The notes under the pieces were generated by a model. It ran no database searches and had not been told where the DNA came from. It saw only the letters and a list, made by a program, of their open reading frames with translations. The translations under genes were made by a program, and so were the position numbers. DNA of 64,000 bases from Candidatus Chisholmbacteria bacterium (GTDB lineage: Bacteria; Patescibacteriota; Microgenomatia; UBA1400; Chisholmbacteraceae): the NCBI GenBank assembly GCA_963704905.1, contig CAVPHZ010000001.1, positions 515,438 through 579,437 on the forward strand. The letters are read 5' to 3'. Of the stretch, positions 44,682 to 45,542 are shown one piece after another; the first letter of the stretch is position 1; every line of letters begins with the position of its first letter.

Positions 44682-45542
44682 ATGCCTGCCTGGGCAAAAA
44701 TAAAGATTTTAGCATTGATTTTCTCCATCACAACTCTCTTGGTTGTGTTTGCTCCAGTGGTCATGGCACAAGATCAATTTGGGATTGCGCAGACGTATCG
44801 TATTGTTGATGAAGAAGTTGAGGATGGGGATATCATCGTCCTTGGATCAGAAGGGGAGATGGTTCGAGCTAGTGTTAGTTTTGACGAGCGGATGTTTGGT
44901 GTTTATGTTGAGAATCCTACGGTCGTTTTACGTGTTGACGAATCTTACTTGCCTGTGGTTCGCACGGGAGATGCGTATGTCAACGTGACAACTTTGAATG
45001 GGGATATTGCGATCGGGGATTTTATCACTTCTTCAACGATTCAAGGAAAGGGAATGTATGCCCAGGCTGGAAATACATCTGGAAGAGTGGTTGGTTTGGC
45101 GCTTGAATCGTTTACCTCTGAAGATGGATTTAAGCAGTCTGTGGAGGTGAATGAGAAGAACGAGTTAGTGCAAAAGGAGATTGCATTTGGCAAGATTAAG
45201 GTAGCACTGGGAATAGGACCAGTGCCGTCTTCACTGGTGACTGAGCGTGGAGGGGTGATCGGTCTGGTTGCTCAGCTGGGATTTGATTTGCTTCGAGCTC
45301 TGCAGCAGACGGAAGGTACCGCCCAGCTGCTTCGTTACATTTTAGCTGCGCTGGTGGCAATAGCGACGCTGGCGTTTAGTTTCTTTACCTTTGGGCGTAA
45401 TATTACCAAGGGTATTGAGTCGATAGGAAGGAATCCACTGGCGAAGTTGCAGATTCAGTCAATGATCATTCTCAATCTGGTGCTGATCGCCTTAGTAACT
45501 GTGGGTGGAGTGATATTGACCATGATTATTGTAAAGTTTTAG
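44682..45542 (+). CDS. secreted N-terminal domain fused to ATP-synthase c-subunit-like C-terminal hairpin (atypical)
   Basis: It has a signal peptide. The C-terminal 70 aa form two TM helices joined by a loop 'GIESIGRNPLA', which resembles the c-subunit '[10 protein letters not shown]'. The position of the conserved Glu/Asp in helix 2 is occupied by Ala or Asn. The gene sits immediately upstream of atpF. Confidence 0.4.
   Translation: MPAWAKIKILALIFSITTLLVVFAPVVMAQDQFGIAQTYRIVDEEVEDGDIIVLGSEGEMVRASVSFDERMFGVYVENPTVVLRVDESYLPVVRTGDAYVNVTTLNGDIAIGDFITSSTIQGKGMYAQAGNTSGRVVGLALESFTSEDGFKQSVEVNEKNELVQKEIAFGKIKVALGIGPVPSSLVTERGGVIGLVAQLGFDLLRALQQTEGTAQLLRYILAALVAIATLAFSFFTFGRNITKGIESIGRNPLAKLQIQSMIILNLVLIALVTVGGVILTMIIVKF

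Follow-up and report, generated by a model that had tools for sequence, protein, structure and literature searches.

A subunit c-like protein without the membrane carboxylate heads an F1-type ATPase operon in Candidatus Chisholmbacteria: a possible surface-directed rotary ATPase

The gene at positions 44682 to 45542 of the plus strand in a 64,000-nucleotide (nt) stretch of the genome of an uncultured, ultra-small Candidatus Chisholmbacteria bacterium (contig CAVPHZ010000001.1; "the window" below means this whole stretch) encodes a protein of 286 amino acids (aa) and stands first in an operon for an F1-type ATPase. We read this protein as a diverged F-type subunit c that has lost its ion site and gained an export domain, and the complex to which it would belong as a repurposed F-type enzyme, a surface-directed rotary ATPase that translocates no ions and is neither an ATP synthase nor an ion pump. 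To this reading as a whole, which draws on sequence comparison and structure prediction, we assign a probability of about 0.55. If it is correct, the machine probably spends ATP on mechanical work at the cell surface and not on ATP synthesis. No description of such a c-like/F1 system was found in the published literature. The predicted parts of the c-like protein are as follows:

44682–45542, plus strand: the whole open reading frame (ORF) of the c-like protein, 286 aa, with signal peptide, exported beta domain, linker helix and hairpin; AlphaFold2 (AF2) model with a mean predicted local distance difference test score (pLDDT) of 91.5.
44682–44768, plus strand: probable signal peptide, aa 1–29, with a putative cleavage site between VMA and Q (hydrophobic residues 9–27; consensus VxAQ; helix 3–22 in the model).
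44769–45227, plus strand: putative exported, beta-rich N-terminal domain, aa 30–182, resembling phage cement and minor capsid proteins (Foldseek against PDB and BFVD; Pfam).
45228–45332, plus strand: linker helix, aa 183–217, between the N-terminal domain and transmembrane helix 1 (AF2 helices 183–188 and 191–209; lower pLDDT, 63–87).
45333–45395, plus strand: transmembrane helix 1, aa 218–238, with the small residues A222, A223 and A226 and no GxGxGxG; R218 and F237 are invariant.
45396–45452, plus strand: cytoplasmic loop, aa 239–257, with invariant E246 and R250-N251-P252; counterpart of the c-subunit E..ARQP loop by HMMER and hhalign.
45453–45539, plus strand: transmembrane helix 2, aa 258–286, with the carboxylate column at A270 (45489–45491) and a near-invariant N265 (45474–45476).

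An N-terminal signal peptide followed by an exported domain had been proposed in the original prediction, which was made from the sequence alone, and the VxAQ consensus, the hydropathy and the AF2 model all point the same way. In the model, for which 54 relatives served as input, a beta domain (residues 35–180) is followed by a helix (183–209) and a hairpin (212–250 and 252–285). A hydropathy scan of the whole protein gives three hydrophobic segments, and the N-terminus consists of a basic stretch and then a hydrophobic stretch that runs up to the probable cleavage site. Because the hairpin is preceded by a predicted signal peptide and exported domain, and because its loop carries four positive charges, the loop should be cytoplasmic, with the N-terminal domain and the C-terminus outside. 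This arrangement fits the topology of subunit c, N-out and loop-in.

The F-type subunit c (AtpE; PF00137, COG0636) is a two-helix hairpin of this same topology with a cytoplasmic loop of the form E..(A/G)R(Q/N)P, and the C-terminal hairpin of the window protein is built alike. By these comparisons the hairpin is homologous to subunit c and not convergent upon it, the homology being significant at the level of the family profile only. The profile search against c-subunit models, by which the original prediction of a c-like hairpin was to be judged, accordingly came out differently for the single protein and for its family. A Pfam scan with the window protein alone gave no match to ATP-synt_C (PF00137), and the NCBIfam model 'F0F1 subunit C' aligned with it end to end over residues 222–283 at an E value of 0.096; its score against NF005608, 13.3 bits, lies below the curated cut-off of 128. 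Ten of the 54 relatives match PF00137 at E ≤ 0.1, the best of them at 0.0021. When the profile of the 54 relatives was compared with all PDB sequences, 15 of the 17 matches listed were F-type c subunits (best E 0.0034), the segment '...ITKGIEaIGRNPLAK..IQ' was aligned with the canonical c-subunit loop, and the matches to c subunits were collinear across the loop and both helices; subunit c1 of A. woodii (4bem) is among the PDB matches. Comparison by hhalign of a hairpin sub-alignment with eight canonical c subunits gave a probability of 91.4 % (E 9e-7, 44 columns). A hidden Markov model (HMM) of c subunits from the control operons described below matched 37 family ORFs, with a best E of 5e-6, and nothing else. 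The modelled hairpin was matched by Foldseek to solved c subunits with template modelling (TM) scores of 0.75–0.86 and a root-mean-square deviation (rmsd) of 1.4–2 Å. The loop motif and a glutamine seven residues after its proline are common to the family and to canonical c subunits, and the JGI pipeline labels some family members COG0636, 'F0F1-type ATP synthase membrane subunit c'. There is no Pfam model of the family itself.

What the hairpin has lost is the ion site. HMMER places the loop of the window protein ('...ITKGIESIGRNPLAKLQ...') against the c-subunit loop, and the c-subunit glutamate then stands opposite A270, within 'LVLIALV', the stretch for which the original prediction had claimed that no acidic residue occupies the essential position. 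We numbered the columns relative to the loop proline (P), which puts the c-subunit Glu/Asp at P+18 and the equivalent of E. coli A24 at P-19. At P+18 all 54 aligned relatives have A, G, V, L, I or S; among 264 members the residue is A, V, I, L, G, F, S or T, and in none is it D or E. Apart from this column, a working carboxylate is known only from the position of A24 in E. coli, and P-19 in helix 1 is S, G, A or N in 269 relatives and acidic in none. The few acidic residues of helix 2 are found at P+7 or, in two sequences, at P+13. D or E at P+7, present in about nine members, was discounted as an ion site since this position is at the membrane-cytoplasm interface. N265, the only conserved polar residue within the membrane part of the hairpin, was rejected as a substitute ion-binding residue because Asn can be neither protonated nor deprotonated; D or E occurs there in 2 of the 264 members. 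The GxGxGxG motif of helix 1, also said to be absent in the original prediction, is missing from the whole family, in which the helix has the consensus RYILAALVAxxxIxxxFxTFG. Since the membrane-embedded carboxylate is lost, the c-like protein should be unable to bind H+ or Na+.

The loop, on the other hand, has been kept. It is the best-conserved region of the protein, with a mean majority-residue frequency of 0.83 as against 0.54 for the N-terminal domain, and E246, R250, N251 and P252 are invariant in the family. In canonical enzymes the polar loop of subunit c is the contact with gamma and epsilon. The family differs from F-type subunit c in having no carboxylate, no GxGxGxG and no subunit a in the operon, and in carrying an N-terminal extension of about 215 aa, made up of the signal peptide, the beta domain and the linker.

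Neither subunit a nor a second subunit c was found with the operon. Pfam scans of ten ORFs of the window with multiple transmembrane segments gave no match to ATP-synt_A or ATP-synt_C, and a query with E. coli subunit a found nothing in the window translated in all six frames. A canonical-c HMM run against the same translation (673 segments) matched only the c-like ORF, at an E value of 0.01; together with the Pfam scans this bears out the earlier claim that the window holds no separate atpE. The 840-nt gap upstream of the c-like gene (43840–44681) contains no atpB remnant, only short non-hydrophobic ORFs, and a scan of this gap for promoters and terminators gave results at chance level.

The same holds across the family, for which an exhaustive profile search returned 513 representatives (clusters at 50 % identity) at E ≤ 1e-30; among the 150 representatives listed the full-length architecture is dominant. 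We compared 87 family loci (824 kb in total) from Gottesmanbacteria, Daviesbacteria and metagenomes with 78 control loci gathered in the same way from a beta-subunit contig scan, mostly ordinary F1Fo operons of unrelated bacteria. The control operons supplied the 62 a subunits and 64 c subunits from which an a HMM and a c HMM were built. The a HMM had 0 matches at E ≤ 0.01 in the 87 family loci, whereas subunit a was found in 61 of the 78 controls, and no separate c was detected in the family loci, where the c HMM matched fused proteins only. Wherever the sequence of the 87 loci reaches far enough downstream, the genes come in one and the same order, c-like, b, delta, alpha, gamma, beta, epsilon. 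One candidate for a true atpE, a 92-aa ORF between the c-like and b-like genes of Gottesmanbacteria RBG_13_45_10 (locus L085), was rejected as a repeated element that is not a membrane protein. In this locus two repeat copies of about 90 codons (9556–9849 and 10852–11130) flank the c-like gene and share peptide strings such as RLGR.TVILASSRS...L..VS.AKA.TMLRNG.PPRA.

In the window the c-like gene is followed on the same strand by the other genes of the operon and by one giant gene:

45558–46262, plus strand: b-like peripheral-stalk protein, one N-terminal transmembrane helix and then about 200 aa of helix; assigned mainly by architecture and gene order.
46280–46798, plus strand: delta/OSCP-like protein with a shortened N-terminal part (Pfam OSCP 22.1 bits, cut-off 22.3).
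46903–48477, plus strand: F1 alpha, divergent, without the canonical delta-binding N-terminus of 26–30 residues (Pfam ATP-synt_ab 1.8e-65; below the NCBIfam atpA cut-offs).
48444–49283, plus strand: F1 gamma (Pfam ATP-synt 8.4e-29).
49293–50687, plus strand: F1 beta (TIGR01039 atpD 488.8 bits, cut-off 462.85; PDB beta chains E 1e-126).
50788–51042, plus strand: short epsilon, 84 aa, beta-sandwich only (Pfam ATP-synt_DE_N 6.3e-15).
51805–62769, plus strand: giant membrane-anchored surface protein, 3654 aa, with an N-terminal Phage_int_SAM domain and then a transmembrane helix; a role in the machine is suggested by synteny only.

The c-like gene therefore stands where the original prediction had placed it, at the head of the operon and in the position of atpE, and like the gene of an F-type subunit c it lies right ahead of those for b, delta, alpha, gamma, beta and epsilon. 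To judge by the translations, F1 has kept its catalytic residues: beta has the Walker A motif GGAGVGKT, GERxREG, VDNxYR, VYVP and a DELSEED-like AELSPDD, and alpha keeps the arginine of SVTRVG. All subunits other than beta fall below curated cut-offs (alpha, gamma, delta and epsilon under those of NCBIfam), and beta is about 43 % identical to ordinary bacterial beta subunits, so that the whole complex has diverged. This strong divergence of F1 and stalk subunits points to a changed function.

The stalk proteins are the least certain members of the operon. The b-like protein matches subunit b weakly (NCBIfam E 0.03; family profile against PDB b chains, E 0.007–0.03) in profile searches where coiled-coil bias is dominant, and its weak matches to SctL/FliH-type proteins are likewise coiled-coil-biased and far below cut-offs. 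The delta-like family profile finds OSCP/delta chains in the PDB, with a best E of 1e-4. Ahead of the beta-barrel motif EVGxV, family alphas from 46 related loci have a median of about 10 residues, as against 26–30 in 64 of 65 canonical alphas, and the delta-binding N-terminal helix would therefore be missing in most of the family. The window alpha has a basic, non-canonical N-terminal extension of 37 residues; its first start codon is TTG, and an ATG lies five codons further downstream. The first 34 nt of gamma lie within the end of alpha (48444–48477), and the same overlap is found in a second locus (L002, 13518–13551), which suggests translational coupling.

Three features go beyond the original prediction: the size of the family, the phage-cement-like character of the N-terminal domain, and the giant surface-protein gene that invariably lies downstream. 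Phage cement and minor capsid proteins (PF23982, PF22758) and phage tail-fibre modules resemble the exported domain in fold, with weak sequence matches; here, by contrast, it forms one protein with a membrane hairpin, and its gene is part of a cellular ATPase operon. Foldseek matched the N-terminal domain in the PDB to the Pam3 cement protein (8hdt_G, E 1.6e-4) and also to decoration or cement proteins of Sf11 and Borrelia BB1. In BFVD the module was found in many phage tail, tail-fibre and structural proteins, with E values down to 6e-11 over about 150 columns, at 20–24 % identity and an rmsd of 2.5–4 Å; the TM scores of the matches in both databases are 0.4–0.6 on the target. PF23982 (XM1_gp53_minor_capsid) weakly matches 29 of the 54 relatives and PF22758 (Phage_cement) five; the window protein scores 13.2 bits against the Pfam phage minor capsid/cement model, below the threshold of 27, and a PHROGs scan of the N-terminal domain gave nothing significant. 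The module also occurs three times in a Woesebacteria protein of 1543 aa (P0214, residues 484–1114), and a copy lies near the C-terminus of a giant downstream protein of Daviesbacteria (L005, residues 2914–3027, E 1.2e-16).

A long homologous ORF begins on the same strand 40–1300 nt 3' of the operon in 30 of the 30 loci that extend 600 nt or more past the operon, and in these it reaches the end of the locus. Besides that of the window, these giant ORFs include those of L001 (16437 to the end), L002 (16759 to the end), L004 (5244 to the end), L005 (11844 to the end, 11844–21362) and L085 (18789 to the end). The giant proteins have a small N-terminal cytoplasmic domain, either a MerR-type helix-turn-helix (HTH) or Phage_int_SAM, then one transmembrane helix and a huge extracellular part that starts with the common motif ...LE[IV]N[ST]D.... 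One homologue of 4057 aa has a Peptidase_S74 match on record.

A possible mechanism can be drawn from these parts. The c-like hairpins, of which the monomer was modelled, would assemble into an oligomer resembling a c-ring, and the strictly conserved cytoplasmic E..GRNP loop would still dock the foot of gamma and epsilon. Hydrolysis of ATP by F1 would rotate or torque this ring, and because there is no ion path the output would be mechanical. The crown that the exported domains would form on the outer side of the ring could pass the motion to the cell surface, where its likeliest target would be the giant membrane-anchored, fibre-like protein encoded just downstream. We suggest, more tentatively than the reading given at the outset and as something that may well prove wrong, that the genes encode an undescribed rotary surface machine of Gottesmanbacteria, Daviesbacteria and their relatives, in which F1 turns a proton-blind c-ring whose crown engages an adjacent fibre of 3,000–4,000 residues. 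If so, ATP hydrolysis inside the cell might move, wind or reset a giant appendage, and the appendage might be used in motility, host attachment or prey contact.

The functionally nearest systems are the F1-like X0 ATPases of mycoplasmas, which are analogous to the present one but are a different system. Like the present system, the MIB-MIP-linked Type 3 and the Type 2 of M. mobile, the gliding G1-ATPase, combine F1-type alpha, beta, gamma and epsilon with no Fo that translocates ions, and one of their membrane proteins is described as having a signal peptide, a large part outside the membrane and, at the C-terminus, two transmembrane helices. As would hold for most alphas of the present family, the alpha-like subunit of Type 3 has been reported without the delta-binding N-terminal helix (PMC12994834), and the mycoplasma genes are linked, like this operon, to those of cell-surface proteins, giant ones in M. 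mobile (PMC12994834, PMC3369863). The mycoplasma hosts are Mollicutes, whereas the present system is found in bacteria of the Candidate Phyla Radiation (CPR), and the present operon keeps c-like, b-like and delta-like (OSCP-homologous) proteins. Types 2 and 3 are defined by the lack of b and delta homologues and by membrane proteins unlike a, b and c, a definition that does not cover it. There is no ORF for the 12-transmembrane-helix 'Protein 1' of the mycoplasma clusters in or next to the operon. The window beta scores 389.9 bits against the MSC_0618 model (cut-off 570) and 373.9 against glide_MMOB1670 (cut-off 850), in both cases too low, and alpha scores 215.7 bits against MSC_0619 (cut-off 520). 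Because c-like, b-like and delta-like proteins have been kept, the 12-helix protein is absent and beta falls short of the mycoplasma models, the present system is placed outside the mycoplasma X0 group.

Two other comparisons concern the rotor ring. The models of the N-ATPases, or alternate F1Fo enzymes (alt_F1F0), were not reached by beta (446.7, cut-off 752) or by alpha (375.6, cut-off 750.5), and N-ATPases have a Na+-binding c and a subunit a where the present system has neither a carboxylate nor subunit a. Proteolipids poor in carboxylates, namely A. woodii c1 and the V/A-type c and K subunits, are a closer likeness in that hairpins which have lost the carboxylate are built into the rotor ring; in those rings, however, at least some hairpins keep the carboxylate and a subunit a is present, and here the carboxylate is missing from every family member and no subunit a is linked.

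Several points weigh against a surface-directed rotary ATPase. Ring formation, binding of gamma and epsilon, rotation and ATPase activity are all things that we infer from the sequences, and the window protein by itself reaches no curated c-subunit threshold. The search of this genome covered 64 kb of 772,908 bp, and a canonical atpB/atpE pair or a second F1Fo could lie elsewhere in it. In three loci (L117, L150 and L100) the c-like gene stands without an adjacent operon, and on one contig (P0085) the operon is split by unrelated genes on the opposite strand. A b-like stator without subunit a has no evident anchor, and the transmembrane helix of the b-like protein is poorly conserved; with the delta-binding helix of alpha probably gone in most family members, the peripheral stalk may differ from that of F1Fo. 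The giant gene may lie next to the operon by inherited synteny, without any functional connection, and no copy of the N-terminal domain was detected in the window's own giant protein.

It is conceivable, if on balance unlikely, that the c-like oligomer does not rotate productively and only anchors an F1-type ATPase in the membrane, and that this ATPase drives another process, such as the export or assembly of the giant protein, in the way that the F1-related FliI/FliJ ATPase serves type III secretion. With no subunit a there is no obvious stator partner for a rotor, alpha has probably lost its delta-binding helix, the b-like protein weakly matches SctL/FliH-type stators, and the giant gene is always adjacent; translocation roles have also been discussed for the mycoplasma F1-like ATPases (PMC3369863). 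However, gamma, epsilon and the c loop that contacts them have been kept and conserved, as a rotor needs, the operon encodes no export gate or pore component, and the SctL/FliH matches are of the biased, sub-threshold kind noted above.

We consider it improbable that the enzyme is a conventional ion-coupled F1Fo, with the genes for subunit a and a carboxylate-bearing c lying elsewhere and the fused protein being an accessory or minority member of the ring or an assembly or plug factor. Split atp operons occur in other bacteria, only part of the genome was covered by the searches, and hybrid rings with carboxylate-free hairpins are known, the c1 of 4bem being itself among the PDB matches. Against this, the c-like gene takes the atpE position in 87 loci with no other c and no a within their 824 kb, and the F1 and stalk subunits are all so strongly diverged as to suggest a changed function. 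A related Microgenomates genome, Ch65, has moreover been reported to be without any membrane ATP synthases (PMC7143001).

There is very little to be said for the hairpin resembling subunit c by convergence, in a surface protein of other descent that is anchored in the membrane and encoded by chance upstream of an F1 operon: a two-helix hairpin is structurally simple and the window protein alone is under every curated threshold, yet the profile matches are almost all c subunits and collinear over loop and helices, the loop motif and the glutamine at P+7 are shared, the gene is invariably in the atpE slot, and the topology of the protein is that of c. That the operon is a functionless, decaying remnant of an ATP synthase operon is strongly disfavoured. 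The missing subunit a, carboxylate and alpha N-terminus might be taken for signs of degeneration, but full-length ORFs are intact in more than 500 clusters at 50 % identity, the residues of the loop do not vary, the catalytic motifs of F1 are preserved and the gene order is kept across two candidate phyla.

Some other features of the window were noted. Upstream of the operon, the plus-strand gene at 42391–43839 encodes HTH_32/HTH_28 DNA-binding domains and a transmembrane segment fused to LytR_C; the upstream neighbour of the operon is not conserved in other loci. Of the 32 two-kb intervals of the window (1–64000), 31 have a positive GC skew, and the cumulative skew rises steadily throughout. 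Most genes of the window are on the plus strand, which may contribute to the skew; for other Microgenomates genomes a cumulative GC skew that is near-linear and of one sign has been described (PMC7143001). Between 30000 and 36300 the G+C content is 0.49–0.54, as against about 0.42 elsewhere. The minus-strand shadow ORFs at 30800–31270, 31972–32475 and 33208–33657 have near-identical hydropathy patterns, which points to internal repeats in the large plus-strand genes 30246–31958 and 31979–36313.

Every rotary ATPase is regarded as needing the membrane carboxylate of subunit c and the partner subunit a. A large natural family that retains F1, the two stalks and the c hairpin but lacks both of these would mean that the motor can be uncoupled from ion transport and put to another use. 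With this enzyme the lineages concerned could neither synthesise ATP at the expense of an ion gradient nor generate such a gradient, and calls of 'F-type ATPase present' in CPR metabolic reconstructions would be wrong for them. If the operon does encode a rotary surface machine, it would be a second, independent conversion of an ATP synthase to a mechanical motor, after the gliding and MIB-MIP ATPases of Mycoplasma, and one in which an evolutionary intermediate is preserved, with c, b and delta still present. The system would offer a tractable intermediate for understanding how ATP synthases turn into mechanical devices, as they have in mycoplasmas, and a concrete starting point for working out what the enigmatic giant surface proteins of CPR bacteria do.

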